Positions 38,430-50,594 of a stretch of 64,000 nucleotides of DNA are shown here, piece after piece. The number at the start of each line of letters is the position of its first letter. The stretch's first letter is position 1. Both the position numbers and the translations under genes were made by a program. The DNA lies in contig DASYTG010000034.1 of the NCBI GenBank assembly GCA_036002525.1, positions 41,257 to 105,256 of the forward strand, in the 5' to 3' direction. The notes below the pieces were generated by a model that worked only from the letters and a program-made list of their open reading frames with translations, searched no databases and was not told the origin of the DNA. Source of the stretch: Candidatus Limnocylindrales bacterium. GTDB taxonomy: Bacteria; Chloroflexota; Limnocylindria; Limnocylindrales; CSP1-4.

Positions 38430-38444
38430 TATCAGGTTCATATC
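38430..38444 (+). repeat. candidate att core, left copy (TATCAGGTTCATATC)
   Basis: Matches 49444..49458 (TACCAGGTTCGTATC) at 13 of 15 positions and coincides with the left GC-content break. Confidence 0.45.
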
Positions 38445-38476
38445 GTTCGTGGTTCACGCCCAATTCGTGCGTGACG

Positions 38477-38507
38477 GTTGACATCTACGGTCAACGTCCC
38501 CGATAAG
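38477..38507 (+). promoter_or_regulatory. candidate promoter and operator for the K/A-rich gene and integrase
   Basis: TTGACA (38478-38483), an 18-nt spacer, then GATAAG (38502-38507). The inverted repeat GTTGAC-n7-GTCAAC (38477-38495) overlaps the -35. Confidence 0.35.
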
Positions 38508-38565
38508 TGCGGTCCCGGCGAATTAGAACAAACGTTCTACGCCGTGACAGGACAGGGAGGTCATC

Positions 38566-38949
38566 GTGACCACGCAGGACATCGGGACCGAAACAGCGGA
38601 CAAGGCGACTCGCGTCGCCGATCCCGTCACCGCCAAGTCCCCAGCGGATGGCAAGAAACGCCTCGCTTCGGCCAAGCGACGTGCCGCGCGGACACCGAAG
38701 GCGTCGAAGGCGTCAGTCAAGGCGAAGTCGAGCGCGCCGTCGAAGGCGGAGCGCGTCCGGGCGCTGCTCGATCAGGGCAAGACAGTCAAGGAGATCGCTC
38801 AGGCGCTGGACGACGTGTCGTGGTCCTACGCCTGGGACGTTGCGGCAGCGTGGGAGAAGAAGACAGGCAAGGTCGTCATCGCATCCCACAAGAAGGCGCC
38901 GAAGAAGCGGGCACCGCGCAAGGCGGCACCGAAGGCAGGTGCCAAGTGA
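38566..38949 (+). CDS. Lys/Ala-rich DNA-binding protein (excisionase-like position, histone-H1-like tails)
   Basis: GTG start with SD gggagg. Its stop overlaps the integrase start (GTGA at 38946-38949). Central HTH-like ERVRALLDQGKTVKEIAQALDDVSWSYAWDV is flanked by KRRAARTPKASKASVKAKSS and KKAPKKRAPRKAAPKAGAK. Confidence 0.6.
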   Translation: MTTQDIGTETADKATRVADPVTAKSPADGKKRLASAKRRAARTPKASKASVKAKSSAPSKAERVRALLDQGKTVKEIAQALDDVSWSYAWDVAAAWEKKTGKVVIASHKKAPKKRAPRKAAPKAGAK

Positions 38950-39899
38950 CGCGGTCGCCCCTCGATCGGATCGACCCCTCCTCCCCTATTCGCAAGCACG
39001 CCGCGTGGTACATGCAGTCGCTCCGCTCGTCAGCGCGATCGAAGGCGACCATCGGCGTGTACGTCGGCGCGTTGCGCGAGTTCGATCGGTTCGCGGCAGC
39101 CAACGGGATGCCGCGTGACCTCACCCAGATCGAACGCCAACACGTCGAGGCGTTCATGCTCGACCAGTTGACTCGCCTGAGCCCAGGATCGGCAGCGGCG
39201 AGGTACGGCGGCCTGCGCTCGTTCTTCGCGTGGGCGGTCGAGCAGGGGCAGATCGACTCGTCACCCATCGCCAAGATGCGACCGCCGAAGGTGCCGGAAG
39301 TCCCGGTGCCCGTCCTGACCGACGATCAGGTGCGCGCGCTGCTGCGCGCCTGTGAGGGCAAGGCGTTCAAGCAGCGGCGCGACACGGCGCTCATTCGGTT
39401 CATGCTCGACACGGGCGCGCGTCGGTCGGAGGTGGCGTTCGTTCGCCTGACCGACCTGGACCTGTCAGAGGGCACGGTCGTCATCACCAAGACGAAAGGC
39501 AACCGTCCACGGGTCGTCGCGTTCGGCGCGAAGACGGCGAGCGCGATCTACGCCTACCTCATCGAGCGGGACAAGAACACGCACGCCTCGTCACCCTTCT
39601 TGTGGATCGGTCAGGCAGGCGGGTTGTCAGGTGATGCCGTTGGCGCGATCGTCGCGAGACGTGCTCGCATGGCAGGCATCTACAACCTTGACGCGGATGG
39701 GAGGCAGCGTCCCGTCCACGCGCACCAGACCCGGCACACGTTCGCCGACCGCTACCTCGCTGCTGGCGGGTCCGAAGGGAACCTGATGGCGCTCGGAGGT
39801 TGGAGGTCGGCGGAGATCATGCGCCGCTACGGTCGTGACCGAGCGACAGCACGAGCGATCGATGAGGCGCGACGGATCGCCGTCGGCGATCGCCTATGA
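38946..39899 (+). CDS. int: tyrosine recombinase / integrase (XerC/D-like)
   Basis: N-terminal SAM-like core-binding segment (IGVYVGALREFDRFAA...RYGGLRSFFAWAV). Catalytic signature DTGARRSEV (Arg), HQTRHTFA (H-x-x-R), LGGWRS and EIMRRYG (Tyr). Confidence 0.9.
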   Translation: MTRSPLDRIDPSSPIRKHAAWYMQSLRSSARSKATIGVYVGALREFDRFAAANGMPRDLTQIERQHVEAFMLDQLTRLSPGSAAARYGGLRSFFAWAVEQGQIDSSPIAKMRPPKVPEVPVPVLTDDQVRALLRACEGKAFKQRRDTALIRFMLDTGARRSEVAFVRLTDLDLSEGTVVITKTKGNRPRVVAFGAKTASAIYAYLIERDKNTHASSPFLWIGQAGGLSGDAVGAIVARRARMAGIYNLDADGRQRPVHAHQTRHTFADRYLAAGGSEGNLMALGGWRSAEIMRRYGRDRATARAIDEARRIAVGDRL

Positions 39900-39951
39900 C
39901 ATTCCCACACGACGCGCTCTAAGGCGGCGTCACGACACGCAACGGGTCGAG

Positions 39952-39981
39952 GAGGCGCGAGTGGGCAACCGCTCGCGCCTC
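39952..39981. terminator. hairpin between the convergent integrase and orphan gene
   Basis: GAGGCGCGAG-tgggcaaccg-CTCGCGCCTC, followed by gttcgttgt on the + strand. Confidence 0.45.
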
Positions 39982-40036
39982 GTTCGTTGTCGCCCAGTGT
40001 TCGCGATGTCGACCTGAACAACCCTCGCCGGGCAGG

Positions 40037-41446
40037 TCACGCAGCGCGTTTCCGTGGCCACGCGTTCAGAGCGTCCTCAGGTCGGTGACGTTGGAGCCAC
40101 TTTCTCGCCGCCGCTTCCGAGAACCCACGTCCTCGAAGGCCCGCGAGCAGATCAGCGCGTGCCGATCGGGTGCGATCGAGCCGATCGAGGTATTCCCGCA
40201 TCCGCGGGACGATCTCGCCCGGATCAGCGGCGTATCGGCCATCGACCTTGGTCGCGAACTTCGGCAGCAGTTTGTAGTAGCGCCGCTCGCTGATCCCGAT
40301 GAGGGTCCACGGCTGACGATCGGCGTTCTCCTGTTTGCGGTGCTGCTTGATCGCGATGCTCGCCTTGCGCGTCACGTAGCGTCGGCTCGCCTCCGCGCCG
40401 CGGGCGGGATCAAAACCCGGATGGAGGAGGCCTTCCAGCAGCAGCGCCGCTGCGGCATCCAAGTCAGGCGCTTTCGTCTCGCGGCGGACGCGTCCTACTT
40501 GTCTTGGAAAGGCGAGCGCGACGGCTCTGGCAAGGAGCGGTTCGTCGCTTCCGACGTATCCGTGCCAGTACGCCTTGAGCAGCACCTGGCAGGCAAGCTC
40601 CATCGGCGAGGACGCTTGGTCAACCGTGACGACAGGGATGCCATGTGCGTGGATTGCCTTCGCGAGCATCGGCCACGGGCGATCGGTGCGCTGGTTCACA
40701 CCCTGCGTCCATATGCGAGCACTGAACGCCCAGTCGACCGGTTGACTCGTCAGGCGCGTGACGATCAGGACGCTCTCGGTGGCGAACAGCGGTGGCGCGC
40801 GCCGCGCTTTCATCTCGTCCTTGTCGAAGAGGTGTTCGAAGAGCCGACCCTCGTCCTCGGTCTTGTCCGTCACCCAGATCAGGCGGCGTGAGATCTGAAA
40901 TCCCCATCCGCCGAACTCGAACCCAAGGATGGGTACGATGAACCTGAGGTCCGGGTCCATGACGCGCCGCAGCACAGACTCCATCTCGCCGCCTTCGACG
41001 TTCTCCCGCAGCCACCACCTGATGTAGTCGCTGTCGAGGAGGCCTTCTCCGCGAGCCTTTGCGACGATCTGCCCGGCGTAGAACAGCGCCTCACCGACCG
41101 GCATGGCGCGAGGCGCAAGCGTCACGAGTGGAGTCACCTGAACGACCGTGGTGATGAGGTCGTTCACCGGATCGGGGACCTCGTGTACGGACTGCTCCCC
41201 CTGCATCGTCCCGCGCTGCAGGTCGGGGACGTCAACAAAAGGGAGGCCGTTCGTCTCGAAGCGGACCGTCCTCGTGCCTCGGAAGTCGAAGGTGCGCCCG
41301 GTCAGGATGTCGATCTCCTGCCCCGTCTGGCGCAGCATCTCCTTCACGAGTTCGCGATCAGGGTCGCCCCCGATCTTCGCGATGACCTCGTCCAGCAGAT
41401 TCTCCGACCATTGTCCCAAGCGGGCAGTATAACTGGGTGTGGACAA
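40037..41446 (-). CDS. large orphan protein (about 470 aa; ORF open to 41713), C-terminal HTH-like segments
   Basis: Protein-like composition and GC3-rich codons from about 41420 down to the stop. No ATPase, nuclease or polymerase motif recognised. C-terminal PWTLIGISERRYYKLLPKF and GRGFSEAAARKWLQRH look like HTH elements. The start is uncertain: in-frame TTGs at 41446 and 41419, ATG at 41338. Confidence 0.6.
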   Translation of the reverse strand: MSTPSYTARLGQWSENLLDEVIAKIGGDPDRELVKEMLRQTGQEIDILTGRTFDFRGTRTVRFETNGLPFVDVPDLQRGTMQGEQSVHEVPDPVNDLITTVVQVTPLVTLAPRAMPVGEALFYAGQIVAKARGEGLLDSDYIRWWLRENVEGGEMESVLRRVMDPDLRFIVPILGFEFGGWGFQISRRLIWVTDKTEDEGRLFEHLFDKDEMKARRAPPLFATESVLIVTRLTSQPVDWAFSARIWTQGVNQRTDRPWPMLAKAIHAHGIPVVTVDQASSPMELACQVLLKAYWHGYVGSDEPLLARAVALAFPRQVGRVRRETKAPDLDAAAALLLEGLLHPGFDPARGAEASRRYVTRKASIAIKQHRKQENADRQPWTLIGISERRYYKLLPKFATKVDGRYAADPGEIVPRMREYLDRLDRTRSARADLLAGLRGRGFSEAAARKWLQRHRPEDALNAWPRKRAA

Positions 41447-41828
41447 GGTTCCGTCAGGCTGGGTCAAGCGACGCTCGGGCCTACTGGTGCCAGCAGAGCG
41501 CGGAATGCGTCGCGCTCCTGCGGCAGTCGCACTCCTGCTGGCGATCCTAACGCTGTCGTCTCCAGCAGCAAGTGCCGTCTCCGCATGGTCCCGCGCGGCA
41601 ACGGACGTGGTGACGATGCTGCGACATGTGCTTGGCGGCACTGCACCGAACGCCGACAACCAGTCGTGCGTGCCGCCTCGACTCCCCGCGCACGACGACG
41701 AGCGACCGGTCAAGACGCGTCGCTGACGATCGATCCGACGGGATCACAGGGCCGCGGGTCGTCCCGCCCCTTAGCGACCGTTCTAGAAGGGGTCAGGCGG
41801 GGTCGCGATCAACGCATACTGGGGCGGG

Positions 41829-42317
41829 ATGACGCCTGAGCGCCCGGTCGCACCCAATCCCGACAGCGTCGTCGCTGCCGTTGAAACGTTGCGCGCCGAA
41901 CTCCTGATGGTCGAGCGAGGCCTCGAGAGCATCGATCGCAAGGCCGCACTCCTGCCTCCTGTCTTGGCTGCTGTCGCAGGGTTCCTGACAACGCCCGAAG
42001 GCGGCTACACGCCCTGGCAGCAGGTCCTACTAATCGCTGCGCTCGGCACGTTCACGACGGCGCTAATCCTCGCGATCTGGATATTGGTGTCGGGGCGGCT
42101 GAATGTTGGGCCAAACGCCCAGACGACAGCGAAGGCAACCCACCTTGCTCCCGCAGACTTCAACCGGGCAGTCGCCGGGTCACTCGCCAACGCGGTCGAT
42201 GAACTGTCGGACTGGTCCAAGTGGAAGGGCAGGCGTCTCTACATCGCGATGGGACTTGCCGCCGCGACTATTCTGCTGCTAGCAATGGCGCGAGTCGCCG
42301 GAGGAATTGGTGCCTGA
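41829..42317 (+). CDS. small multi-TM membrane protein (162 aa), first gene of a coupled three-gene cassette
   Basis: N-terminal helix ...LRAELLMVERGLESIDRKAALL, then hydrophobic segments PPVLAAVAGFL, VLLIAALGTFTTALILAIWILV and LYIAMGLAAATILLLAMARV. ATG with ggggcggg upstream. Confidence 0.6.
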   Translation: MTPERPVAPNPDSVVAAVETLRAELLMVERGLESIDRKAALLPPVLAAVAGFLTTPEGGYTPWQQVLLIAALGTFTTALILAIWILVSGRLNVGPNAQTTAKATHLAPADFNRAVAGSLANAVDELSDWSKWKGRRLYIAMGLAAATILLLAMARVAGGIGA

Positions 42318-42507
42318 CGATCAGCAGCAACCGCAATCGCCTCCGAGCGAGGCTCCGGAGACGCCTGCACCGCCCGTCGAACAGCAAGTCGCCCCTCAAC
42401 CTCAACCGCCGCCTCCACCCCTCGACTTCGGGGAACAGATTGCCGAGCGTGGCAACGTCCCTCACGAGATCGAGACGAGGATCATCGAGCGGAGCGGCGA
42501 GCGGTGA
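42310..42507 (+). CDS. Pro/Gln-rich small protein (65 aa)
   Basis: GTG at 42310 lies 4 nt after GGAGGA and overlaps the end of the upstream gene. Sequence PDDQQQPQSPPSEAPETPAPPVEQQVAPQPQPPPPPLDFGEQIAERGNVPHEIETRIIERSGER. Low complexity makes the coding status uncertain. Confidence 0.4.
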   Translation: MPDDQQQPQSPPSEAPETPAPPVEQQVAPQPQPPPPPLDFGEQIAERGNVPHEIETRIIERSGER

Positions 42508-42749
42508 CAGACACGAGGCGGTACTCGGCAACGTGGATCGTCACGATGGACGTTGAGGAGCCGCCGGGCAAGGATCGGCAGGAGCGCGGCCAAGACGAGT
42601 CGGCGCTGATGCTCAGCATGCACTTGTTCCTCGCCAGTCAAGGCATCGACCAAGCGCTGCAGGACCACTTGAAGGCGTGGGCAGGCGACCGCGAGATCGA
42701 ACACGTCCATGTCATGGCGCTCTCCGCAAAGCACCCTGACAACGAGTGA
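42504..42749 (+). CDS. small acidic protein (81 aa)
   Basis: Its start overlaps the upstream stop (GTGA). MTDTRRYSATWIVTMDVEEPPGKDRQERGQDESALMLSMHLFLASQGIDQALQDHLKAWAGDREIEHVHVMALSAKHPDNE. No family recognised. Confidence 0.5.
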   Translation: MTDTRRYSATWIVTMDVEEPPGKDRQERGQDESALMLSMHLFLASQGIDQALQDHLKAWAGDREIEHVHVMALSAKHPDNE

Positions 42750-42919: not shown

Positions 42920-43258
42920 CTAGGAGGAGGACGCCGGAATGGTTTGTGGTGCAGTGATCGCCCACGTCTGGTCCGCGCACAGCCCCTGCATCTCGGCGAT
43001 GACCCGGCCACGCTGCGTCGCCACGAGCGTTCCCGGCAGGCATCCGGAACGAGCGAATGCTTGGAAGGGGGCAATTGCGAGAGCCGTCTGGCCGGATGAC
43101 AGTTCCATCTCCCACGGAGCCGTCGCGCCGCCAGCACTGCGATAACTGACGACGACCTCTTCGGACGTGTCGTTCCTCACCGATCCGACGGGGCCGTGGT
43201 CCTCTCTTAGGCCGCAGCCCGCGACAGTCACCGAGAGCAGGACGCAGATCGCTCCCAT
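42920..43258 (-). CDS. small lipoprotein (112 aa)
   Basis: MGAICVLLSVTVAGCGLRED... is a signal peptide plus lipobox (VAGC). Start at the ATG at 43258. The upstream part of the listed 202-aa ORF is Arg/Pro-rich. Confidence 0.6.
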   Translation of the reverse strand: MGAICVLLSVTVAGCGLREDHGPVGSVRNDTSEEVVVSYRSAGGATAPWEMELSSGQTALAIAPFQAFARSGCLPGTLVATQRGRVIAEMQGLCADQTWAITAPQTIPASSS

Positions 43259-43493: not shown

Positions 43494-43667
43494 TCATTCC
43501 GTGGCGGCGACCTCCTCCTCAGCCTCAAGTTCCGGGTCCTCGTCGGGCGCCGGCCGCTCCCTCGGGAGCAACGCCTGAGCGTCCTCGAACGTCTTAGGTG
43601 TCTCGCCTCGGAGGATTTCGATCGTCCGCTCCCCGGTCGTCGTTGCCTGGGTGACGCGCTGACTCAT
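43494..43667 (-). CDS. small acidic protein (57 aa)
   Basis: Own translation: MSQRVTQATTTGERTIEILRGETPKTFEDAQALLPRERPAPDEDPELEAEEEVAATE. The ATG overlaps the upstream stop (ATGA at 43664-43667). It is below the ORF-track length cut-off. Confidence 0.4.
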   Translation of the reverse strand: MSQRVTQATTTGERTIEILRGETPKTFEDAQALLPRERPAPDEDPELEAEEEVAATE

Positions 43668-44548
43668 TCGGCACCGCCTTGCTGCGCCGCTGCGCGCTGC
43701 TCCTGCATGAAGTTCCGCATCTTCAAGTTCGCCGACGTTGCCGCCTGCTCGGCGGTGGTGCCGACCTTCTGAGTCAGGCGCTCGGAGTAGATGTCGTTCC
43801 GCAGCAGGTCCCGCTGCAGGACGATCTCGTCCATCTGCTCCCTCGCCTGCCTGCGGTGAGGCACGGATCGATCGAGCGCCTCCGTCAGGGCGTTGTCGAG
43901 GCGACCATCGGTCACCCCGGCACGCCTCGCCGCCTCGACGTACACCCGCGCTCGATCCGGCGCGTTCGACGCGATCAGGCGCCTCGCCTCCGACAGCAGG
44001 CGGTTGCGGATCATCGCCTGCGGCTGCCCAATGAGCGGCGCGGCGAGCCCCGTGATAGCCAGCTCGTCGGCAACGCGGCGTGACTCGGTGGCGGCGTCAC
44101 CGACGGGATCGCTGTCGTACAGCGCCTGAGCGAGCGCCCAGTTCGCCTCGACCCACTCCTCCATCGCGGCGAACGCCTGCTCCTCGGTCATCCGCCACTC
44201 GTGCAGCAGGTTTGACCGCTTCTTGTTGTACTCCTCGGCCCGAACGCCGTAGGTCTGGTCGGCGTCGAGCGGCGGGAACTGACGGAGGCGTTCCGCCACT
44301 TCCCGCAGCCGCGCGATCGCCCGCTTCCTGATCTGCTCTGCCTTCTGCTTCGCCTCGGTGGTCATGCGCTCGTACTCCTTCTGCATTCGGGCGCCCTTGC
44401 GGGCGTCTCGCTCCTGTGCCAACTGCTGCTGGATCGCGGCTCGACGTTCAAGCGATGCCGCTGGAATGCCCCACGCCCCATCTCGTTCGATTTGGAGCAG
44501 GAGGATGCGGTGATCGATCGCCGCCAGACGATCGGCGTGCTTGCCCAT
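43664..44548 (-). CDS. all-helical orphan protein (294 aa)
   Basis: Charged, coiled-coil-like composition (QQQLAQERDARKGARMQKEYERMTTEAKQKAEQIRKRAIARLREVAERL...). It is translationally coupled to the endonuclease VII gene (shared position 44548). Confidence 0.65.
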   Translation of the reverse strand: MGKHADRLAAIDHRILLLQIERDGAWGIPAASLERRAAIQQQLAQERDARKGARMQKEYERMTTEAKQKAEQIRKRAIARLREVAERLRQFPPLDADQTYGVRAEEYNKKRSNLLHEWRMTEEQAFAAMEEWVEANWALAQALYDSDPVGDAATESRRVADELAITGLAAPLIGQPQAMIRNRLLSEARRLIASNAPDRARVYVEAARRAGVTDGRLDNALTEALDRSVPHRRQAREQMDEIVLQRDLLRNDIYSERLTQKVGTTAEQAATSANLKMRNFMQEQRAAAQQGGAE

Positions 44549-45105
44549 CAGACCTCGACCTCGAATGCTTCGAGGTAGGCGGCGAGTCGCCGCAGCACCT
44601 CAAGTGAGTCATGGACCCGCGCCAGCGTCGTGTTGCACGTCGCGCACAGGAGTCCTCTGATGCACTTCCCGCACGAGCGTTCGCCCGGGCAGCACTTGTG
44701 GTCGTGATCGACAGACAGGCGCGTGCGCTTCCCCCGCCGCAGCGACTCACGTTTCCCACAACCCGCGCATCGCCCGCCCTGCATGTTGAGGAGCAAGTCG
44801 TACTCGTCAGGGGTGAGGGAGTACCTCCTCAGCGAAGCGCGCTTATCGACCAGCTGCCCTTCGGGTGTTGCGCGGTACCGACGCGACAGCGCGAGGTCTT
44901 GCACCTTGCGCGCCCTGCCTCGGTCCAGTTCACATGGACGGCAGTAACCGCCAACGTACCCGGATCGATACACGTGCCTCGGGCGCGCCTGGCACCGCGG
45001 GCACGTCCTGAGAGATGAGGCCTCATCAGCCTCGCCTGTGACCCGGCTAGAAAGGTCGCTCTCGGGCGCGACGACGATTTCCGGGTCAAGACACCTGACC
45101 ATCAT
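44548..45105 (-). CDS. recombination endonuclease VII family protein with N-terminal zinc ribbon
   Basis: YSLTPDEYDLLLNMQGGRCAGCG...LSVDHDHKCC...IRGLLCATCNTTL is a typical Endonuclease_7 signature. N-terminal CPRCQ...CRPCE. Confidence 0.85.
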   Translation of the reverse strand: MMVRCLDPEIVVAPESDLSSRVTGEADEASSLRTCPRCQARPRHVYRSGYVGGYCRPCELDRGRARKVQDLALSRRYRATPEGQLVDKRASLRRYSLTPDEYDLLLNMQGGRCAGCGKRESLRRGKRTRLSVDHDHKCCPGERSCGKCIRGLLCATCNTTLARVHDSLEVLRRLAAYLEAFEVEV

Positions 45106-45153: not shown

Positions 45154-45450
45154 TCATTCGCCCTCCTCCTGTGGCGGCTGTGGGAACCAGATCGCCCGAC
45201 AAGCGGCATACACGCCAACCACCATGTCCCCGTGGCGATTGACGTTCGGCGGTTTGCTGTGGGCGATCGCCTCCGACACCGCGGGATCGAGGTTCGGCAC
45301 CTGCCCAAGGAGCGTGTTGAACCACGCGTCGAAGACCTGCCCGACCGGGACATACCGCTCTTCGCCGTTGTCGATCCGGCGGAAGGTCACGTACTTGGGC
45401 GACACCCGCATCTCCGCCTTGGCGATGCGCGCCGCGAGTGAACTGGTCAT
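45154..45450 (-). CDS. hypothetical protein (98 aa)
   Basis: Normal composition (RVSPKYVTFRRIDNGEERYVPVGQVFDAWFNTLLGQ...) and the same strand as the operon. Confidence 0.5.
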   Translation of the reverse strand: MTSSLAARIAKAEMRVSPKYVTFRRIDNGEERYVPVGQVFDAWFNTLLGQVPNLDPAVSEAIAHSKPPNVNRHGDMVVGVYAACRAIWFPQPPQEEGE

Positions 45451-45549: not shown

Positions 45550-46002
45550 TTACTCATCGTCGTACTGCGGTGGCGGCGTCGAGTCGTCAGGATCGTGCAG
45601 GAGGGCGTCGATCCGACGCTGACGCTCCTCCATCTCGCCGGTCATCAACACCCGCACCGCAGCGGTTGCCAGTGAGGCGAGCGCAGACGCGCGAGTGGGC
45701 GACAAGGCGCCCGACTGGACATCAGCCATCGCCTTGACCACGTCATCGAACACTGAGCGAAGGCGTGGTGGCATCAACCTCTGGACACGACTGACCGTGC
45801 TTGACGAGCGCCCAGCGAGGACACGTGTCTTCGCCTTGGCGTCGGCAGTGATGTTCGGATCGTGGAAGTAGCAGAACCCGCTTCGACCAGCGAACGCACC
45901 GCACCGAACACCGTCCTTCTTGATCCCCTTGCAGCGGGGGTTGCCGGTCGGTGTCAGGTCGTCGTCCTTGACCACACGCAGTGCTGCTTGCCGTCTCGTC
46001 AC
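45550..46002 (-). CDS. hypothetical protein with Cys/His cluster (150 aa)
   Basis: NPRCKGIKKDGVRCGAFAGRSGFCYFHD is a putative zinc-binding N-terminus, followed by a helical C-terminus. GTG start with SD aaggagg. Confidence 0.6.
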   Translation of the reverse strand: MTRRQAALRVVKDDDLTPTGNPRCKGIKKDGVRCGAFAGRSGFCYFHDPNITADAKAKTRVLAGRSSSTVSRVQRLMPPRLRSVFDDVVKAMADVQSGALSPTRASALASLATAAVRVLMTGEMEERQRRIDALLHDPDDSTPPPQYDDE

Positions 46003-46023
46003 GAGTGCCTCCTTATCTCTCGG

Positions 46024-46147
46024 TTATCGGTCGGTTTAGGTGGTCGAGGCGGTCGATTGCACGTTCGCGCCTGCTGGCTTGCCCGCCTTCGATCGCGCCC
46101 ACTTATGCGGTCGGTCACCGTTTGCCATCAGCACTCCCGACCGCTAA
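46024..46147. repeat. iteron-like repeats TTA(T)(G)CGGTCGG (two direct, one inverted, plus degenerate copies); candidate replication origin or operator
   Basis: TTATCGGTCGGT at 46024-46035, GCGGTCGAT at 46049-46057, TTATGCGGTCGGT at 46103-46115, and inverted CCCGACCGCTAA at 46136-46147. They lie in the 223-bp non-coding gap immediately downstream of the primase-helicase gene. Confidence 0.45.
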
Positions 46148-46225
46148 ACGTTTCCTGAGAGCGACCCGCCGCTACCGTCAGCAGTGACGGCGCCAACGAG
46201 GCCATTGCGGCATCGGTCAGCGGCG

Positions 46226-48148
46226 TCACCGAGGCCTCCGTGGCGTCGTCTTCGCTGCCTTCGCCTTCGCTCGCGCGTGGGCATCCGCGTCGGTCGACGG
46301 TTGACGACGAGACACGCGTATACGGTGTCTCTCGTCAACCACGACGCTGGATGCGGGTTCTGGTTGAGGAGTGGCGTCAACCGAGTCGTCAACTGAGTCG
46401 TCAACCGACCATGTCTTGCGCTCGGATGCAGGTCCACTGCGACGTTCGACAGCGCCGATAGCGCGGAGGTCAGCGAGTGCGGTGTCCTTGCCGATGGCGA
46501 GCATCGAGGTGATCTCCGCCATCGTTCGCGGTCCCGCAGCGAGCAGCACCTTCATGTCCTGCCGTCGCTTGACCATCCGGTCGTTGCTCTTGCCGTAGGA
46601 GATGCGTGGCGCGCCAGCGTTGAGGTACAGCCCGCCCTCGCGGATCAGGACCACGGGATCGGCGGCGCCTTCATACCGCGAGATGATCTGGCACGACCGT
46701 GCCATGTCGTCCTCAGGGACGCGGGTGACCTCGACCATCGTCTCGACCTGGGCCAAGAACTCGGTCGTGCCTCGGTAGGTGCCGCTCCTGTTCGTCTGGT
46801 GAACGACGATGCAGGCGATGCCCCGCGGGATGACCGCCGACCGAACAATGTCCAGCGCGCGGCCTACCTCGGACGCATCGCCCTCGTTCTCGATGCCCGC
46901 CCACGCCCGCAGCGTGTCGATGAGCACCGGTCGCCCCTCGCGCTCGGCAACGCGGGCCGCCTTCATGACGACCTCGGCGAACGTCAAGCCCGGGTTCTGG
47001 GCGCGGGTCAGCAACCGGAAGTCGGTCATCGAGTAACGCCGGATCTTCTCGCCGAGGGTGTCGTACCCCTCCTCGGACACCATCACTGGACCCGGCATGT
47101 GTCTGGCGTTCAATCCGGCAAAGAGCGTCCCGTTGAGGCAGGCCGCGAACAGCCCGAACGCGAGCGACGACTTGCCGTCCTTCGGTCCGCCGACGATGAG
47201 GAGGACTGCGCCACGGTGGAACCACCCATCGATCAGCGGGTCAGGTGGATGGTCAAGGAGGTCGGCGACCATCGCGGGGGCGAGGAACAGCGAGTCGTCG
47301 CTGTCGGGATCGGGCACCGTCCAAGGCCTGCCCGAGCGTTGCACGTCGCGCCAGTCCTTCTCGCCCAGCAACGGGTTGGTAGGTGGGCGGATCGTGGCGA
47401 CCATCAGGCCCGCCTCAATGATCGAGGTCGTTTGTTCCGAATCCGCCTTGCTGCCAGACGAGTCGAGGTCGAAGGCAAGGACAATCGCCTCGACGCCGCG
47501 ATCCCGGAGAGCGCCGATCTCTGTAGGGGTCAGGACCCGGCCCGCCCCTTTCGTGATCGCGTAGGCCTTGACGCCCTGCGAGCGCAGCACGATGCAGTCG
47601 GTTTCGCCCTCGGTCAGCGTCAGCGTCTTCGGGTATCGCTTGCGGAGCGGCCAGATCGGCGGCGTTGACAGTCCTGCCGGTTCCCACGCGAGGCCGTCCT
47701 TCTTCGGCGCCCCCATGACCCGCGTCTTTGCCGGGAGGTCGTCGCCGAACAGGAACGCGACCTTGCCGTCGCGGGCCTCCACCGGCAGCGCATCGATGAC
47801 CGAGCGATCGACGCCGCAGTAGGCGGCGAGCTCGTCCAGCGGATCCTTCTTCGATCGCCGCCTTACCCGTGGGAGCGCTGTCGTGGGCGACACGTCGCTC
47901 GTGCCAATCGGGACGTGGGCGCTGCCGTTCCGCAGGGCGTTGACTGCGTCGAGCATTTCCTGCTGCGAGCAACCTGACCAGCACTTGCCGATGACCCGCG
48001 TTCTGCCAATGGCAACGTCGAGCGACGGGTGTTCGTCACCGTGGGATGGGCAGGTCGCCGTGAACTTCGAGGCGCCGTGCCACTCGACCGGCGCGAGCGC
48101 CTTTGCCCAGTCGCGGAGTTCGGCGCGGAGGCTGTCGGTCGTGGTCAT
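46226..48148 (-). CDS. bifunctional primase-helicase (DnaG-type zinc finger + Toprim + RecA/DnaB-like ATPase; T7 gp4-like layout)
   Basis: CPSHGDEHPSLDV...KCWSGC (CHC2-like zinc finger). Toprim LTEGETDCIV and AFDLDSSG. Walker A LLIVGGPKDGKSSLA, Walker B-like RPVLIDTLRAW, IVVHQTNRSG. C-terminal wHTH-like MAEITSMLAIGKDTALADLRAIG. Confidence 0.85.
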   Translation of the reverse strand: MTTTDSLRAELRDWAKALAPVEWHGASKFTATCPSHGDEHPSLDVAIGRTRVIGKCWSGCSQQEMLDAVNALRNGSAHVPIGTSDVSPTTALPRVRRRSKKDPLDELAAYCGVDRSVIDALPVEARDGKVAFLFGDDLPAKTRVMGAPKKDGLAWEPAGLSTPPIWPLRKRYPKTLTLTEGETDCIVLRSQGVKAYAITKGAGRVLTPTEIGALRDRGVEAIVLAFDLDSSGSKADSEQTTSIIEAGLMVATIRPPTNPLLGEKDWRDVQRSGRPWTVPDPDSDDSLFLAPAMVADLLDHPPDPLIDGWFHRGAVLLIVGGPKDGKSSLAFGLFAACLNGTLFAGLNARHMPGPVMVSEEGYDTLGEKIRRYSMTDFRLLTRAQNPGLTFAEVVMKAARVAEREGRPVLIDTLRAWAGIENEGDASEVGRALDIVRSAVIPRGIACIVVHQTNRSGTYRGTTEFLAQVETMVEVTRVPEDDMARSCQIISRYEGAADPVVLIREGGLYLNAGAPRISYGKSNDRMVKRRQDMKVLLAAGPRTMAEITSMLAIGKDTALADLRAIGAVERRSGPASERKTWSVDDSVDDSVDATPQPEPASSVVVDERHRIRVSRRQPSTDADAHARAKAKAAKTTPRRPR

Positions 48149-48284: not shown

Positions 48285-48611
48285 TCACGACGGCACGTCC
48301 CCGATCCAATACCCCTGCTCCTCGTCGTGGACGACAGCAAACGATCGTTGAGCACATGAACATCCCGCGCGTTCCGTCAGTAACTGACCAAGCAGCAACC
48401 TCACCGCGACCATCACGCACTCGTCGGCGCTGAGGCCCATTGACGACTCGCGGAGGGCGACGAACAGCCCGAGGGCAACGTCAGGGGCGAAGTGCTGCTT
48501 GACCTCCTCGGAGGTGACCGACGAGTGCGCGCAGGCAAGCGTCCATTCGCCGTGATTGCCCGCCTCGGGCCGATCGATCCACTCCGTCCACGCCACGGTG
48601 GGGGTCGTCAT
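48285..48611 (-). CDS. hypothetical protein (108 aa)
   Basis: The ATG overlaps the upstream stop (ATGA at 48608-48611). No family recognised. Confidence 0.5.
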   Translation of the reverse strand: MTTPTVAWTEWIDRPEAGNHGEWTLACAHSSVTSEEVKQHFAPDVALGLFVALRESSMGLSADECVMVAVRLLLGQLLTERAGCSCAQRSFAVVHDEEQGYWIGDVPS

Positions 48612-48886
48612 TCCGACCGCCTCTTTGCCGCGGACCTTTCCGCCATCCTTCTGTAGTGACCGCGCCGCAGGCGCTCGGCAGTCTTGCGCCTCACGTCGTC
48701 AGGCAGCGTGGGATCGATCTCCGTCCAGGGGCAGACCTTGCACGAGTGCCCCTGCAGGAACGACTCGCGGAACCGCCGCTGGGCCTCATCGAAGATGCCC
48801 TCGGGCGCGATCGGATGCAGCTCCCAGCGGCGCCGCCCGCCTTCCTTGCCCGCGCGCGAGAGGTGGGCGAGGCGTTCGGGGGTCAC
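48608..48886 (-). CDS. hypothetical basic protein (92 aa)
   Basis: Coupled at both ends by 4-nt overlaps. RLAHLSRAGKEGGRRRWE ... HSCKVCPW. Confidence 0.55.
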   Translation of the reverse strand: MTPERLAHLSRAGKEGGRRRWELHPIAPEGIFDEAQRRFRESFLQGHSCKVCPWTEIDPTLPDDVRRKTAERLRRGHYRRMAERSAAKRRSE

Positions 48887-49125
48887 GAGTCGCCGCCGTA
48901 CAGGTCGAGGAGGCGGGTGACCAGCGCCTCACTTGGGTTGCCGTTGCCCCGCTCACATTCTGAGAGCCAGAACTGACTGATCCCAGCGAGGCGAGCGGCA
49001 TCGACCTGCCGCATTCCTGCACCAATGCGCGCGAGCAGCAAGGACCGCGCGCCGGGTGGGCGAGCACGTAGTTCGTTCGTGCCCCGCGAGCGCGGGCCTA
49101 GGACTCGACCCCGAGAAAGCGACAT
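48883..49125 (-). CDS. XRE-family helix-turn-helix transcriptional regulator
   Basis: LLLARIGAGMRQVDAARLAGISQFWLSECERGNGNPSEALVTRLLDLY is a typical HTH_3 pattern. It is the first gene of the minus-strand operon. Confidence 0.7.
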   Translation of the reverse strand: MSLSRGRVLGPRSRGTNELRARPPGARSLLLARIGAGMRQVDAARLAGISQFWLSECERGNGNPSEALVTRLLDLYGGDS

Positions 49126-49157
49126 TCGGCGGCGACCTCGAAAGGTCCCGCCGAATG
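49123..49157. promoter_or_regulatory. 15-bp-stem palindrome/hairpin with UUCG loop covering the XRE start codon
   Basis: Plus strand reads CATTCGGCGGCGACCT-CGAA-AGGTCCCGCCGAATG. On the mRNA strand this is CAUUCGGCGGGACCU-UUCG-AGGUCGCCGCCGAAUG (one bulged G). The AUG at 49125-49123 forms the 3' end of the stem. Confidence 0.5.
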
Positions 49158-49369
49158 CATGCTCGGGTCAGATCAGCAGGTCATTGCCTATGCATCGTGC
49201 TCGAACCTTGGGACTCGCCCAAGGGGCCTGCCGGTCGGTTTTCAGTTGCGGCGACGATCGTACACGCAGTAGATGGGGCTATTGCAACCGTCGTCGTGGC
49301 GACCTTATCAACGGCGTCAAGAAAACGAGGTGGAACAAACTTCCGCCGCGCGAACCGACCTGATAAGTC

Positions 49370-49431
49370 CTGACTACTACGTTCAGGCCCGCGCCGAGAA
49401 ATCAGGTTCAACGGCGAATCTGACTACTACG
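49370..49431 (+). repeat. 12-bp direct repeat CTGACTACTACG (49370-49381 and 49420-49431), each followed by an AYCAGGTTC motif
   Basis: Read directly. ATCAGGTTCA at 49401-49410 is identical to 38431-38440. These are candidate integrase arm or accessory sites at the right junction. Confidence 0.45.
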
Positions 49432-49442
49432 CACTCCCTCCC

Positions 49443-50594
49443 CTACCAGGTTCGTATCACGTGATCGGCGAGGCGGCGGGCTTCGTCCGCACGGCCCAGG
49501 GTGAACTCCTGGAACCGGCCCCAGGCCTCGGCGATCCGGCGCGGCTGACGGCTGAACTTGCGCTCGAACCAGTCCGCCCTGTCGGGCCGATCCAGCTCGT
49601 CGGCCCACCAGGCGGTCAGCGGCCCGAACCTCAGCGCGAGGGTCGCCACGTAGCCGAACCGTGCGTCGGCCTCGTCGCCTCGCCAGCCCGCTTCGTGCAG
49701 CCCGGCGAGGTAGCCACGGAGCACGTGCTCTTCGAGGGCAACGGCCTCGGTCGGATCGACCAGGAGCTGCCACAGTGTCGCCCCGACGATGCCGGCGGCG
49801 TCCTCCCCCATCGCACCCAGTCCCGCCAGAGCCCAGTCGAGGACGACGTACGAGTCCCGCCCTGCCTGACCACCCCGAACGAGCACGTTCACCGGGGTCA
49901 CGTCGCGATGAACAAACGTCTGGGGCAGGCCGTCGAGCGCGGCCAGCATTCGTCCTCGATTCGCGGCCAGGCGAGCAAGCGCCTGCGAGCTCGGGGTGGC
50001 GGCGACGGCAAGTGGGCCATGGATTGTCGCGGCACCAGGACCTTCCAGCAACTCCGCGCCGAGCCCTACCCATGAGCGCAGTCCGCCCGCGCCGAGGCCC
50101 TCGACGTCGGGGACAGGGCGGCCCTCGAGATACGCGCCGTTGAACGCGCCGACGCGCCTGGCCACATCCTCGAATCGTTCGAGCGACCAGGGACCGCGCA
50201 CTGCGTCCGCGATCTCCTCGAGACAGAGCCAGAGCGAACCATCGGGACGCTCGACGACGCCGCCGAAGCGCGGCGCCGATAGCTTGCCGGGCAGGTCGTC
50301 TAGCGCGCCTGACGCGTATGCATTGATCTCGCGCTTCCAGAAGTCCCATGCGACCGGATCGGTGGCCGTTGCGTCGGATGCCGGCGGGGCAAAGGTCTTC
50401 GCGACCAACGACCAGCTCACCAACCGACTGTCCGACGTGCGCGCGGTACCGCGGATCCGATGCAGCTCGGCATCCATGATGTTGAGCCAGCCGAGCGCGT
50501 CCCGACTCGCGTCGGTAACCTCCGCCGTGGCATCGCCCAGGAGGCGGCGGACGACCGGTGTCAGCTCAGCGAGATCGACCGCCTCGTCGGCCAC
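49443..50594 (-). CDS. aminoglycoside/choline-kinase-like phosphotransferase (APH family)
   Basis: Brenner motif FVHRDVTPVNVLV and YVVLDWALAG (metal-binding Asp). Confidence 0.85.
   Translation of the reverse strand: MADEAVDLAELTPVVRRLLGDATAEVTDASRDALGWLNIMDAELHRIRGTARTSDSRLVSWSLVAKTFAPPASDATATDPVAWDFWKREINAYASGALDDLPGKLSAPRFGGVVERPDGSLWLCLEEIADAVRGPWSLERFEDVARRVGAFNGAYLEGRPVPDVEGLGAGGLRSWVGLGAELLEGPGAATIHGPLAVAATPSSQALARLAANRGRMLAALDGLPQTFVHRDVTPVNVLVRGGQAGRDSYVVLDWALAGLGAMGEDAAGIVGATLWQLLVDPTEAVALEEHVLRGYLAGLHEAGWRGDEADARFGYVATLALRFGPLTAWWADELDRPDRADWFERKFSRQPRRIAEAWGRFQEFTLGRADEARRLADHVIRTW
49444..49458 (+). repeat. candidate att core, right copy (TACCAGGTTCGTATC)
   Basis: Overlaps the stop and last codons (..HVIRTW*) of the APH-family gene and coincides with the right GC-content break. 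Confidence 0.45.

Follow-up and report, generated by a model that had tools for sequence, protein, structure and literature searches.

Phage satellites are, in general, small elements that carry an integrase, a regulator and a primase or replicase and are without structural or lysis genes (PMC10085698, PMC9618062). The island described here, which lies in a 64-kb stretch of DNA (hereafter the window), matches them in its small size, its integrase, regulator and primase, and its absence of recognizable structural or lysis genes. On balance we favor, with moderate confidence, the view that it represents a new family of satellite-like elements that depend on a helper. The window had been read as actinobacterial from its sequence, a reading at odds with the NCBI label of the contig, which belongs to the metagenome-assembled genome of an uncultured bacterium: Candidatus Limnocylindrales, phylum Chloroflexota.

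Insertion site and integration genes

The tyrosine integrase of the element recombined it site-specifically into the very 3' end of a kinase-like gene of the APH family, for which the element supplies a near-identical replacement end. The sequence-only reading had claimed an integrative element with a compositional break and a 13/15 direct repeat at its borders, and these claims are borne out. GC content is 65.7% across 38445-49443, against 71.5% elsewhere in the window, where no 11-kb stretch falls below 69.7%. By itself the repeat is only modestly unlikely: when the two 120-bp junction regions were shuffled 300 times, a 13/15 match arose in 4 cases. The APH open reading frame (49443-50594, minus strand) ends in ...HVIRTW*, spanning the attR core. 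The empty site that the same reading proposed to look for was found in a related metagenome contig (L003, Ga0184623_10073739), whose APH protein is 78% identical to that of the window. There, a single att-like copy, AACGATATGTACCTGATA, follows the APH stop codon, and the orthologous Gly/Ala-rich gene lies 133 bp downstream of that stop with no island between, so that the 11-kb block is an insertion exactly at 38430-49458. A second copy of the integrated state is present in an 11,261-bp metagenome contig (L002) that is 100% identical to window positions 38313-49573.

Homologues of the 127-aa HTH protein always adjoin a recombinase gene, of either tyrosine or serine type, and the protein may act as excisionase/RDF or regulator; L005 and L009 share 76-82% identity with it over its last 50 residues, which can also be recognized in L011 and L017. 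In the integrase translation, the motif residues R, K, HxxR, W and Y can be read. The JGI gene call starts this gene at 39012; L006 conserves the N-terminal extension that begins at 38946, in favor of a longer frame overlapping the HTH gene by 4 nt. Within the attL-side arm, positions 38453-38540 are 80% identical to 19950-20037 of L005, at the same position in that relative, and may serve as promoter or in integrase binding. On the attR side, two perfect copies of CTGACTACTACG (49370-49381 and 49420-49431) bracket the core-like AATCAGGTTCA (49400-49410), an arrangement kept in L005 and L006 (integrases 70% identical) that suggests integrase arm sites.

Table 1. Features of the element, in window coordinates
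Position	Strand	Feature	Evidence
38430..38444	.	attL core, TATCAGGTTCATATC	13/15 vs 49444-49458; 17/18 vs single L003 empty-site copy
38445..38565	.	attL-side arm, upstream of HTH-int operon	conserved in L005
38566..38949	+	Lys/Ala-rich HTH protein, 127 aa, candidate excisionase/RDF or regulator	weak Pfam HTH_23, E 8.5e-4
38946..39899	+	tyrosine integrase	Phage_integrase E 3.2e-24; phrog_1 E 4e-44
39952..39981	.	GC-rich terminator-like hairpin, 13-bp stem	between convergent int and 460-aa genes
40037..41419	-	cargo protein, 460 aa, widespread uncharacterized family	homologue survey
41439..41726	+	small membrane protein, 95 aa, divergent partner of 460-aa gene	53% identical to its divergent counterpart in L015
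41689..41806	.	non-coding element conserved across the family; Box B 41691-41741, Box A ~41765-41782	alignment of relatives
41829..42317	+	162-aa protein, hydrophobic membrane-like segments, cassette gene 1/3	no family match
42307..42507	+	Pro/Gln-rich orphan, 66 aa, in three-gene cassette	no matches (Pfam, PHROGs, PADLOC)
42504..42749	+	backbone protein, 81 aa, in three-gene cassette	79% identical in L009, 59% in L006; no family match
42920..43258	-	predicted lipoprotein, 112 aa	lipobox-like LSVTVAGC; no family match
43494..43667	-	acidic protein, 57 aa, last gene of long operon	4-nt overlap with 294-aa gene; no matches
43664..44548	-	all-helical signature protein, 294 aa	conserved across element family
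44548..45105	-	Zn-ribbon and endonuclease VII (His-Me finger) nuclease	Endonuclease_7 E 1.2e-20; phrog_307 E 8.8e-27
45154..45450	-	orphan, 98 aa	weakly similar to N-terminus of L011 183-aa protein, same position
45550..46002	-	DUF5763 zinc-ribbon protein, at site of relatives' TerS-like gene	DUF5763 E 9.5e-9
46003..46225	.	intergenic gap, 223 bp	weak two-copy short repeats only
46226..48148	-	primase-helicase, 640 aa: Zn-binding N-terminus, Toprim, AAA_25/RecA-like	AAA_25 E 2.3e-14; Toprim_2 E 3.9e-7
48285..48611	-	backbone orphan, 108 aa	34-61% identical in L005, L006, L017, L018
48608..48886	-	backbone orphan, 92 aa	76-77% identical in L005 and L006
48883..49125	-	XRE-family HTH regulator, first gene of leftward operon	HTH_31 E 2.6e-10
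49126..49443	.	attR-side arm with repeats	repeat pair around core-like site
49444..49458	.	attR core, TACCAGGTTCGTATC, within last codons of APH-family gene	repeat match

The leftward operon

All backbone genes of the element are intact, and the catalytic motifs of the core proteins (integrase, XRE, primase-helicase, nuclease) are readable in their translations. A perfect 10-bp inverted repeat, CATTCGGCGG/CCGCCGAATG (49123-49157), overlaps the start codon of the XRE gene. The primase-helicase (NCBI accession HEV8489554.1) also matches PHROG primase and primase/helicase families; only 13 homologues of it were found, and tblastn gave no match in phage or plasmid collections. The gap downstream of it had been called iteron-like, or an origin, which the weakness of its repeat pairs does not bear out; it is conserved in no relative, and the spacing at this position is 11-65 bp in L005 and L006.

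Beyond the gap lies what we term a packaging-type module. Homologues of its DUF5763 protein occupy the same place, upstream of the signature gene, in L011 and L018, and this position, the sole basis of the assignment, suggests a TerS-like role; similarity to the 175-205-aa TerS-like proteins of relatives was not detectable. The nuclease has an N-terminal Cys motif in common with a 323-aa Cys/His-rich protein of L011. Homologues of the signature protein (29-83% identity, 230-330 aa) occur in every related element examined and always end the module, and an exhaustive HMMER search of 1.84 billion proteins returned 47 representatives with E<=1e-3. The AlphaFold2 model of the 294-aa protein (pLDDT 81.7) is all helix, and Foldseek found nothing with E<=0.001 against BFVD or the PDB. 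Members fall in no Pfam or PHROG family, except for one that also matches RadC/JAB.

Across Pfam, PHROGs, NCBIfam, PADLOC and AlphaFold2/Foldseek, no capsid, portal, terminase, tail, lysis, FtsK/TraB or relaxase gene was found in the island, nor was a TerS, TerL or capsid-remodelling gene recognizable. The absence of virion and conjugation genes, noted from sequence, thus holds after structure prediction for the 294-aa and 460-aa proteins and the exhaustive HMMER search; neither of these two was recognizable as a capsid, portal, terminase or TraB-like protein. In IMG/VR, the reconstructed attP junction is absent, and no viral contig was found to encode proteins related to the primase-helicase, the signature protein or the 460-aa product.

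Related elements

At least six distinct elements are known: that of the window, L005, L006/7, L009, L011 and L017, in addition to a fragment, L018. The relatives are metagenome contigs throughout, with ends visible in a minority; where both can be seen, the element measures ~10-11 kb. The HTH protein, recombinase, XRE regulator, 92-aa and 108-aa proteins, primase-helicase and signature protein are common to the family, gene order is alike, and the flanking host genes, where visible, differ. L011 is a member with a serine recombinase, and L006 repeats the compositional contrast (65.3% GC in the element, 72.0% in the flank).

In four relatives (L005, L006, L009 and L017), a TerS-like gene and a split large terminase occupy the position of the packaging module. 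Their terminase ATPase protein (phrog_7579, E 2.4e-56) is 51-54% identical to the TerL of Thermus and Meiothermus phages, and the second protein aligns with the nuclease half of that TerL. The window element differs in that a zinc-ribbon DNA-binding protein and a His-Me-finger nuclease replace these genes. Capsid, portal and tail genes were found inside none of the related elements. The satellite-like interpretation proposed from sequence is backed by these relatives; helper dependence is what we infer.

Cargo and a conserved non-coding block

The cargo is made up of the 460-aa gene and its small membrane partner, the three-gene cassette and the lipoprotein. Most of the gene list drawn up from sequence was confirmed, the exceptions being the divergent 95-aa gene, which was overlooked, and the "470-558-aa orphan", which is 460 aa long rather than 558 and no orphan. 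The protein is a member of a large family with high conservation: homologues number at least 428 (55-78% identical), come from Streptomyces, Micromonospora, Kitasatospora and many metagenomes, and have no Pfam domain. Its AlphaFold2 model (pLDDT 75) has no Foldseek or PDB match, and elements related to the island hold no homologue. Two neighborhoods of homologues were examined, and both contain defense-type genes (SLFN-type helicase, ApeA-HEPN and MazG-like in one; SIR2_2 in the other); in Streptomyces (L014), an analogous small membrane-protein gene takes the same position as the 95-aa gene. The 162-aa protein belongs to no family in Pfam, PHROGs, NCBIfam or PADLOC, and its sole entry in the precomputed annotation of the collection is a "faint" PycTM match. 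JGI calls the 81-aa gene at 42546-42749. In L005, the variable cargo slot is occupied by a candidate defense gene, PDC-M30A (E 1.6e-46). An anti-phage role for the cargo is plausible.

Conservation of the non-coding block at 41689-41806 surpasses that of every gene in the cross-element comparison. Its identity is 51/51 nt in L006/L007, elements otherwise ~70% identical, 93% over 115 nt in L009 and 87% in L005, whereas coding DNA reaches only ~70-83%. ACGGTCGCT is invariant in 6/6 aligned elements, with flanking bases largely conserved, and the block holds an inverted repeat, AGCGACGCGTC-TT-GACCGGTCGCT, and a third half-site. Its folding as RNA does not stand out (z -0.66 and +0.37), and neither Rfam nor IMG/VR contains a match. 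We consider this block the best candidate for a cis site recognized in packaging; an operator or a recombination boundary of the cargo slot are alternatives.

Discussion

How the element moves is the point on which explanations diverge. There is a modest chance that phages do not package it and that, as an integrative and self-replicating island, it amounts to an integrated plasmid-like or cargo/defense island; it might then excise and spread by vesicles, transformation or another route, or simply be inherited vertically. Integrase, regulator, replication genes and cargo are present while terminase is absent, the cargo family neighbors defense-type genes elsewhere, family members are missing from IMG/VR, and the caveat applies that "Type C" sets (integrase, regulator and primase) may represent, instead of satellites, mobile elements of another kind or genes brought together by chance (PMC10085698). 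Against this stand four close relatives with the same backbone and terminase genes, a signature protein physically tied to the packaging-type module, and a cis block common to the terminase-bearing relatives and 51/51 nt identical to that of L006. We know of no role for TerS-like and TerL genes other than capsid packaging. The element may instead have been stranded by terminase loss, a point against helper dependence: as a defective derivative of a terminase-bearing element, or a prophage remnant, with its module replaced, it would now be a fixed, decaying insertion. This we regard as rather unlikely. The terminase module of L005, L006, L009 and L017 is indeed missing, an unusual, unconserved gap marks the module junction, and one integrated copy was seen, the second contig carrying it being 100% identical. 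Yet no backbone frame is disrupted and most are translationally coupled, the two att copies have been preserved whole together with the conserved arm repeats, and composition has not ameliorated toward the host. Furthermore, a DUF5763-type protein, with or without the nuclease, recurs upstream of the signature gene in the independent L011 and L018, which gives the alternative module the look of a variant that has been maintained, not of decay.

Conjugative transfer, as an AICE, ICE or mobilizable element, was an alternative raised with the initial reading, and an integrase, a replication gene, small size and a high-GC host would suit it. It is very unlikely, as searches of the open reading frames with Pfam, PHROGs and NCBIfam gave no FtsK/TraB, relaxase, T4SS or coupling-protein family, the two large proteins (294 and 460 aa) lack such a fold, the host label is Chloroflexota rather than Actinobacteria, and relatives carry terminases, not transfer genes. 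Tailed-phage-type TerL needs a portal and an HK97-type procapsid. The relatives' TerL is of this type and neither partner is encoded, which makes it hard to credit that the element is a very small autonomous temperate virus with structural proteins too divergent for recognition, even though it is self-replicating and integrative and about ten of its frames have no recognizable function. Apart from the 460-aa protein, an unrelated cargo widespread in Streptomyces chromosomes, frames of this kind encode only 57-294 aa, and the 294-aa protein is modeled as an all-helical bundle, with neither a capsid nor a portal fold.

As a helper-dependent satellite-like element, the island is probably still functional and would be mobilized by a helper phage. 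The XRE protein would head and autoregulate an operon running through the two small proteins, primase-helicase, DUF5763 protein, 98-aa protein, endonuclease VII, 294-aa protein and 57-aa protein. Derepression, possibly triggered by the helper, would lead to excision by the Lys/Ala-rich HTH protein and integrase, and the primase-helicase would replicate the excised circle. The late part of the operon would then steer element DNA into helper-phage capsids, with the 294-aa protein as the proposed hijacking factor; since the element has a zinc-ribbon protein and a nuclease in place of its own terminase, terminase motor and capsid would both have to be borrowed. Together, gene set and relatives point to a family, not described before, of phage-dependent "satellite" elements that lack a capsid; its members have so far turned up in Limnocylindrales-like (Chloroflexota) metagenome contigs.

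An inserted element in a Chloroflexota genome

The boundaries that the sequence-only reading gave to the island are upheld by composition, by a direct repeat and by an empty site. In 500-nt windows the GC fraction drops from 0.72-0.80 to 0.63-0.69 between ~38250 and 49500 and is ~0.70 thereafter; it is 65.7% over 38445-49443 versus 71.5% in the remainder of the window, where the lowest value for any 11-kb stretch is at least 69.7%. Shorter lower-GC patches also occur outside the island, at 34500-35750 (0.67) and 56750-57500 (0.64) against ~0.72. At the composition breaks lie the direct repeats TATCAGGTTCATATC and TACCAGGTTCGTATC, which match at 13 of 15 positions, a level reached in 4 of 300 shuffles of the junction regions; taken alone, the repeat is weak evidence for insertion.

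The deciding evidence is the empty site, which was found by a metagenome scan with the APH-family protein whose gene flanks the right end of the island. Locus L003 carries an APH gene whose product is 78% identical, with a single copy of AACGATATGTACCTGATA directly after the stop codon. The orthologue of the Gly/Ala-rich gene of the left flank starts 133 bp past that stop, so that the two genes adjoin as the sequence-only reading had anticipated, and the intergenic DNA can be aligned to the left flank of the window. Because of this empty site, the island is taken to be an insertion with the proposed boundaries, and with integrase, flanking repeats and empty site all present it is a site-specific integrative element of the tyrosine recombinase type. 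The attR core falls within the final APH codons (…HVIRTW*), and the element therefore supplies a replacement 3' end for that gene. A search of GTDB contigs, one genome per species, for the empty site or for relatives yielded only a 35%-identical Chloroflexia match, and an exact look-up of the APH protein gave no record. No tRNA was found in a scan of the whole window, and no family gene has a second copy elsewhere in it.

The integrated island was also recovered in a JGI contig of 11,261 bp (L002), which is 100% identical to window 38313-49573 and thus includes ~120 bp of flank on each side. This contig ends just before the left-flank gene, probably because of the repetitive DNA there: the gene, conserved in L003, encodes ~137 residues with acidic ends and a Gly/Ala-rich, repetitive core of GAAVGG type, and its DNA is rich in internal direct repeats.

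An actinobacterial background had been proposed for the island and is not supported, because the NCBI label of the metagenome-assembled genome (MAG) is Limnocylindrales and the sole GTDB match of the APH protein comes from a Chloroflexia MAG. The primase-helicase (HEV8489554.1) and the 294-aa protein (HEV8489551.1) of the island are deposited under locus tag VGQ58_07160 on a 118-kb contig of a 'Candidatus Limnocylindrales bacterium' MAG. Going by this deposited label, the host phylum is Chloroflexota.

Gene content and missing functions

Family searches against Pfam, PHROGs and NCBIfam bear out the gene list drawn up in the sequence-only reading; the corrections are that the large orphan is 460 aa long and that its 95-aa membrane partner had been missed. 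The minus-strand operon runs from the XRE regulator through two small conserved proteins, the primase-helicase, a DUF5763 zinc-ribbon protein, a 98-aa protein, a Zn-ribbon protein with an endonuclease VII domain and the 294-aa protein to a 57-aa acidic protein, with 1-4 nt overlaps between several gene pairs. In the translations we could read the catalytic residues of the integrase, the acidic motifs of Toprim and the Walker A motif, which makes the backbone look intact. Upstream of the XRE gene, the related elements L006 and L011 have a small repressor-type gene in divergent orientation; the window element lacks it.

Features of the window element and its junctions
Feature	Position	Strand	Remarks
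Gly/Ala-rich left-flank gene	37899-38311	minus	L003 counterpart at 1100-1536
Left direct repeat	38430-38444
Lys/Ala-rich protein	38566-38949		weak HTH_23 match; overlaps integrase gene
Tyrosine integrase	to 39899		Phage_integrase E 3.2e-24
460-aa gene	40037-41419		large former "orphan"
95-aa membrane-protein gene	41439-41726		divergent partner of 460-aa gene
Two-gene cassette (460-aa gene and membrane partner)	40037-41726		L014 (Streptomyces), 9703-11380; L015, 718-2377
Conserved non-coding block	41689-41806		51-nt stretch at 41691-41741
Lipoprotein, 112 aa	42920-43258
294-aa signature gene	43664-44548	minus
Non-coding gap	46003-46225
Primase-helicase, 640 aa	46226-48148	minus	Zn-binding/Toprim/AAA_25; Toprim_2 + AAA_25, PHROG primase/helicase families
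XRE HTH regulator	48883-49125	minus	HTH_31; head of operon
Perfect 10-bp inverted repeat	49123-49157		overlaps XRE start codon
Core-like AATCAGGTTCA	49400-49410		34 bp from attR, inside element
APH gene (host)	49443-50594	minus
Right direct repeat	49444-49458

The absence of recognizable virion and conjugation genes, noted from the sequence alone, was borne out by these searches, which gave no capsid, portal, terminase, tail, lysis, FtsK/TraB, relaxase or type IV secretion system (T4SS) family for any ORF. The two large unknown proteins were checked by structure as well. An AlphaFold2 (AF2) model of the 294-aa protein (4 sequences; pLDDT 81.7) is entirely helical and has no Foldseek match at E<=0.001 in BFVD or PDB; that of the 460-aa protein (54 sequences; pLDDT 75) is mixed alpha/beta with a helical C-terminus, and this protein has no significant PDB match by fold or by sequence. 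By these tests, together with the profile searches, neither protein is capsid, portal, terminase or TraB-like, as the sequence-only reading had allowed they might be. By megablast the whole island matched none of 50,697 phage records and 72,556 plasmid records. Nor did tblastn find a match for the signature, DUF5763, primase-helicase or 460-aa proteins among the phage records, or for the primase-helicase and 460-aa proteins among the plasmid records. In IMG/VR, queries with the primase-helicase, the 460-aa protein and the signature protein, the last both as a single sequence and as a profile, gave nothing related.

A family with a shared backbone

The primase-helicase has only 13 detectable homologues among 5.8 billion clusters, and the family of the 294-aa protein comprises 47 representatives among 1.84 billion proteins. 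We compared the window element with the metagenomic loci L005, L006/L007/L008, L009/L010, L011/L012, L017 and the fragment L018. The signature protein is present in every element, at 29-83% identity to that of the window. Relative to the window element, identities across the rest of the backbone are 40-82% for the Lys/Ala-rich HTH protein, 46-70% for the tyrosine integrase (L011 has a serine recombinase instead), up to 77% for the 92-aa protein, 34-61% for the 108-aa protein, 36-59% for the primase-helicase (of a different type in L009) and 59-79% for the 81-aa protein in L006 and L009; the XRE regulator is also shared. The elements are mosaic, with the early genes of the window nearest to L005 and L006 and its late genes nearest to L009. 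One of 36 aligned members of the signature family also matches a RadC-like JAB domain (Pfam E 1.4e-21; phrog_10276 'DNA repair protein' E 8e-18).

Sizes are 11.0 kb for the window element and at least about 10.5-11 kb for L006, in which the GC content of the element (65.3%) and its flank (72.0%) follows the same pattern as in the window. Where flanks are visible, the host neighbors differ, being comEA/comEC in L006, an ABATE/zf-CGNR gene in L005 and L009, and APH in the window; these look like independent insertions. Two element-sized contigs, L011 (1-11040) and L017 (1-10613), consist solely of element-type genes. In L011 a serine recombinase lies mid-contig with element genes on either side, and a primase-helicase is not recognizable, although the contig may break at the place of that gene. 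Both contigs may represent non-integrated forms, episomal or packaged, but L011 has no terminal overlap, and none indicative of circular contigs was found among L001-L013. Directly beside the L005 element, a block at 1-8204 encodes a serine recombinase, an AAA_25 helicase, a 484-aa HK97-type major capsid protein, an S78 prohead protease, along with small ORFs. Possibly this block is a capsid-forming satellite in tandem with the terminase-bearing element.

Alternative packaging-type modules

Between the primase-helicase and signature genes is a slot that holds one of two alternative modules. Version A, found in L005, L006, L009 and L017, has three genes. The first encodes a 175-205-aa protein with an N-terminal Cys motif and an HTH-like segment, which has no family match and appears TerS-like from its position and our reading of its sequence. 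The second encodes a 251-261-aa ATPase half of a large terminase (Terminase_6N E 4e-10; phrog_7579 E 2.4e-56), 51-54% identical to TerL of Thermus phage Riverbug and Meiothermus phages MMP7 and MMP17. The third product, of 215-273 aa (phrog_27743), aligns to residues 305-399 of Riverbug TerL, in the nuclease half; in version A relatives the large terminase is thus split over two proteins. We found no capsid, portal or tail genes in these relatives in the stretch from integrase to XRE gene. An IMG/VR scan with the TerL ATPase of a relative gave a best match of 42% identity and hence no helper candidate.

Version B, found in the window, L011 and L018, comprises a DUF5763-type protein and a small protein, joined in the window and L011 by a Cys-rich nuclease. 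This nuclease is the endonuclease VII in the window. The L011 protein measures 323 aa and carries the Zn-ribbon of the window protein twice, together with what we read as an HNH-like C-terminus. The DUF5763 protein has no sequence similarity to the TerS-like protein, which rules it out as a detectable homologue; by position only, it would be its counterpart.

Cis-acting elements

A non-coding, iteron-like gap upstream of the DUF5763 gene had been noted from the sequence. It contains only weak two-copy repeats, is conserved in no relative and measures 11-65 bp in L005 and L006; an iteron-type origin is not accepted there, repeats and conservation both being wanting.

Conservation is concentrated instead in the non-coding block near the cargo genes. 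Fifty-one nucleotides of it are 100% identical in L006/L007, and the block is 93% identical over 115 nt in L009 and 87% identical in L005, versus ~70-83% for the coding DNA of the same elements. Within it ACGGTCGCT is invariant in all six elements aligned, and the larger motif around it, ACGGTCGCTAAGGGGCG, is exact in four, including the distant L011 and L017. The block contains an inverted repeat, AGCGACGCGTC-TT-GACCGGTCGCT, with a third half-site and three 8-nt palindromes, and in L005, L006 and L017 it lies ~110-150 nt downstream of the signature gene. A structured RNA is not supported, as RNA folding is not unusual and Rfam gives no match, nor did an Rfam scan of 37500-50500 give any. The block matched nothing in the phage collection or IMG/VR.

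As the sole feature more conserved than the proteins, and one that persists across replication and packaging modules, this block is the best candidate for a packaging site. An operator for the conserved HTH protein and a recombination boundary of the cargo slot are alternatives that we keep in view.

On the attR side, two perfect CTGACTACTACG repeats stand on either side of a core-like AATCAGGTTCA. L005 and L006, with integrases at 70% identity, keep the same arrangement, which fits integrase arm and core-type sites. For the core-like sequence, which lies within the element between 12-nt repeats, possible roles are additional integrase binding and secondary crossover. The reconstructed attP junction reads ...CTCCCTCCCC-TAYCAGGTTCRTATC-GTTCGTGG... 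and had no match in an IMG/VR scan. A strong hairpin lies between the convergent integrase and 460-aa genes. A sigma-70 promoter scan, which is uninformative for Chloroflexota, found nothing.

Cargo

What lies between the signature gene and the integrase differs from element to element. In L005 this slot (15508-18374) encodes a PDC-M30A candidate defense protein (E 1.6e-46), a DUF5131 protein and a protein with weak matches to PDC-S32 (PADLOC) and AbiJ_NTD4 (Pfam), contents that fit an anti-phage hotspot.

The 460-aa protein of the window is no orphan, as it had been called: it has homologues, numbering at least 428 and at 55-78% identity, from Streptomyces, Micromonospora, Kitasatospora, Streptomonospora and many metagenomes; none of them has a Pfam domain, and the protein is absent from PADLOC. 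The S. phaeochromogenes homologue is neighbored by an SLFN-type helicase, a MazG-like gene and an ApeA-HEPN gene, and that in locus L015 by a SIR2_2 gene. Each of the three cases examined has, upstream of it, a gene for a small membrane protein in divergent orientation. A defense role for the 460-aa protein is a reasonable guess, and with its membrane partner it may form an undescribed anti-phage or toxin-type system; we regard the cassette as a candidate new anti-phage system because both neighborhoods examined contain defense-type genes. Whatever its function, the pair represents a large, highly conserved and unannotated family extending from Chloroflexota to Streptomyces at 55-78% identity.

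Comparison with known satellites

Five components make up the core of phage-inducible chromosomal islands (PICIs) in the SatelliteFinder paper (PMC10085698): integrase, regulator, primase or replicase, a blocker of phage-DNA encapsidation and a small terminase. Measured against that list, the window element has the integrase and a primase, offers candidates for the regulator and lacks the last two. For the regulator, of AlpA, Stl or MerR type in PICIs, the candidates are its XRE HTH_31 protein and the protein with the weak HTH_23 match; the primase is present as a functional class, not by homology to PICI Pri-Rep profiles. No terminase family was detected in any ORF of the element, the DUF5763 protein being a positional candidate only, and no family or fold match points to a capsid-morphogenesis or packaging-interference gene. 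Its authors caution that 'Type C' sets (integrase, regulator and primase) may be other mobile elements or chance aggregates.

In general plan the element resembles PICIs and SaPIs as described in that paper (PMC10085698), with ~11 kb, site-specific insertion by an integrase, HTH regulators, its own primase/replicase and a slot for accessory genes close to the integrase, and with neither structural nor lysis genes. A further likeness is the nuclease of the His-Me/HNH superfamily beside presumed packaging functions. Cos-type SaPIs depend on the HNH nuclease and terminase of their helper. Unlike PICIs, the window element has neither a TerS family match nor a capsid-morphogenesis or packaging-interference gene, its regulator is co-oriented with and heads the replication operon rather than being divergent, its backbone is not homologous to known PICI genes save for the generic integrase and HTH, and its host phylum is Chloroflexota.

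Among known satellites, those with terL as a core gene are the cfPICIs, which also encode capsid, portal and adaptors (PMC10085698). The version A relatives resemble them in carrying TerL and a TerS-like gene but differ in that TerL is split into ATPase and nuclease proteins and that the capsid, portal, protease and head-tail adaptors of cfPICIs are absent inside the elements of this family. The window element itself lacks TerL, as well as cfPICI capsid, portal and head-tail adaptor/connector genes, and the major capsid, portal, large terminase, tail and lysis genes of tailed prophages were not found in it either.

With P4-like satellites the element shares an integrase, a large primase-helicase and a proposed reliance on a helper for capsid and terminase, whereas no PHROG or Pfam match was found in it for the P4 core genes Sid, Psu, Delta, Epsilon, AlpA and alpha. 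P4 has a short cos region in common with its helper, the rest being unrelated, which offers a possible, speculative analogy for the conserved 51-nt block; equally speculative is an analogy between the 294-aa protein and the all-helical P4 capsid-size factors Sid and Psu.

The closest general class is that of the VEIMEs, which are environmental, capsid-less elements bearing integrase and primase. Like them, the window element is environmental and small, has an integrase and a primase/helicase, no capsid genes and many unknown genes, and stands outside the classical satellite families (PMC9618062; 10.1101/2020.12.28.424599). Some VEIME groups also carry HNH nucleases or TerS (PMC9618062; tycheposon preprint 10.1101/2020.12.28.424599). 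However, hosts, gene families and habitat differ, and VEIMEs, which are defined operationally by recovery as concatemers inside virions (PMC9618062), have been seen in virions, whereas the window element is known from sequence. The window element has inserted at the 3' end of a protein-coding gene; tycheposons, by contrast, use tRNA genes as their targets. From these comparisons, we file the element as working like a phage satellite, outside the PICI, cfPICI, P4-like and PLE groups, and regard its group as a candidate new satellite-like family.

How the element may work

What is established is a site-specific insertion by a tyrosine integrase, intact genes for regulation, replication and a nuclease, and membership of a family whose other members carry terminase without capsid genes. 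On balance we lean toward a helper-dependent, satellite-like element. The satellite reading proposed from the sequence thus stands as regards the insertion and gains the terminase-bearing, capsid-less relatives, while its actinobacterial host and iteron-like gap are given up. On this model the integrase and the HTH protein would excise the element, its own primase-helicase would replicate it, and helper phage capsids would receive its DNA. The one known function of a large terminase, established for tailed phages, is to pump DNA by way of a portal into a procapsid, and packaging is proposed because elements of this size keep a TerS-like gene and TerL without capsid or portal, which is hard to explain unless capsids are borrowed. 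The window element, without terminase but with the signature protein and an identical cis block, would need to borrow terminase too, as P4 and cos-type SaPIs do. Endonuclease VII might act as in T4, resolving branched products of replication ahead of packaging, or it might help to cleave DNA ends in the manner of cos-phage HNH proteins; both activities are known in its superfamily. For the 294-aa protein, possible roles are setting capsid size or scaffolding, adapting a terminase or portal, and interfering with the helper.

Other explanations account for parts of these data. An island that replicates but is not packaged by phages would agree with the intact primase-helicase and leave the terminase of the relatives aside; we think this unlikely. 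Quite unlikely, in our estimate, is a stranded derivative that has lost its terminase, a description matched by the window element next to its version A relatives; the backbone of the element looks intact. A conjugative or mobilizable element, which an integrase and replication genes could suggest, is very improbable, as there is no FtsK/TraB, relaxase or T4SS/coupling protein family and no similarity to the plasmid records. Hardly credible is an autonomous mini-virus, which the element's own replication enzyme could suggest but for which no virion gene was recognized.

Beyond the helper-dependent reading of the window element, we raise tentatively, and with considerable doubt, a broader proposal, namely that these elements form an unrecognized satellite family of Chloroflexota with a packaging module but no capsid. 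The module would exist in two swappable versions, one with its own TerS-like protein and split TerL, the other with a zinc-ribbon binder, with or without a His-Me nuclease, that borrows terminase, and the invariant helical protein and the near-invariant 51-nt site would serve as anchors. The terminase-less form of the window could depend on a helper phage or even on terminase-bearing sibling satellites, a satellite-on-satellite parasitism.

Most of the phage satellites described come from Proteobacteria and Firmicutes, and a few from Actinobacteria and marine plankton. Limnocylindria are widespread in soil and freshwater but uncultured, and to our knowledge next to nothing has been learned of their phages; we found no literature linking satellites to Chloroflexota hosts or prophages to Limnocylindria. 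New satellite families are being reported at a rapid rate, the 11-kb EPIPs in Mycobacteriaceae being one example of such classes, and the present family is known from sequence alone, which tempers its novelty. Its interest lies in the unusual host phylum, the swappable packaging modules, the strongly conserved cis site and the uncharacterized cargo family. The 51-nt block and the signature protein could provide a computational handle for finding helper phages and, if the proposal is true, packaging enzymes without a capsid, in modules exchanged around one DNA site, would represent a distinct satellite strategy.
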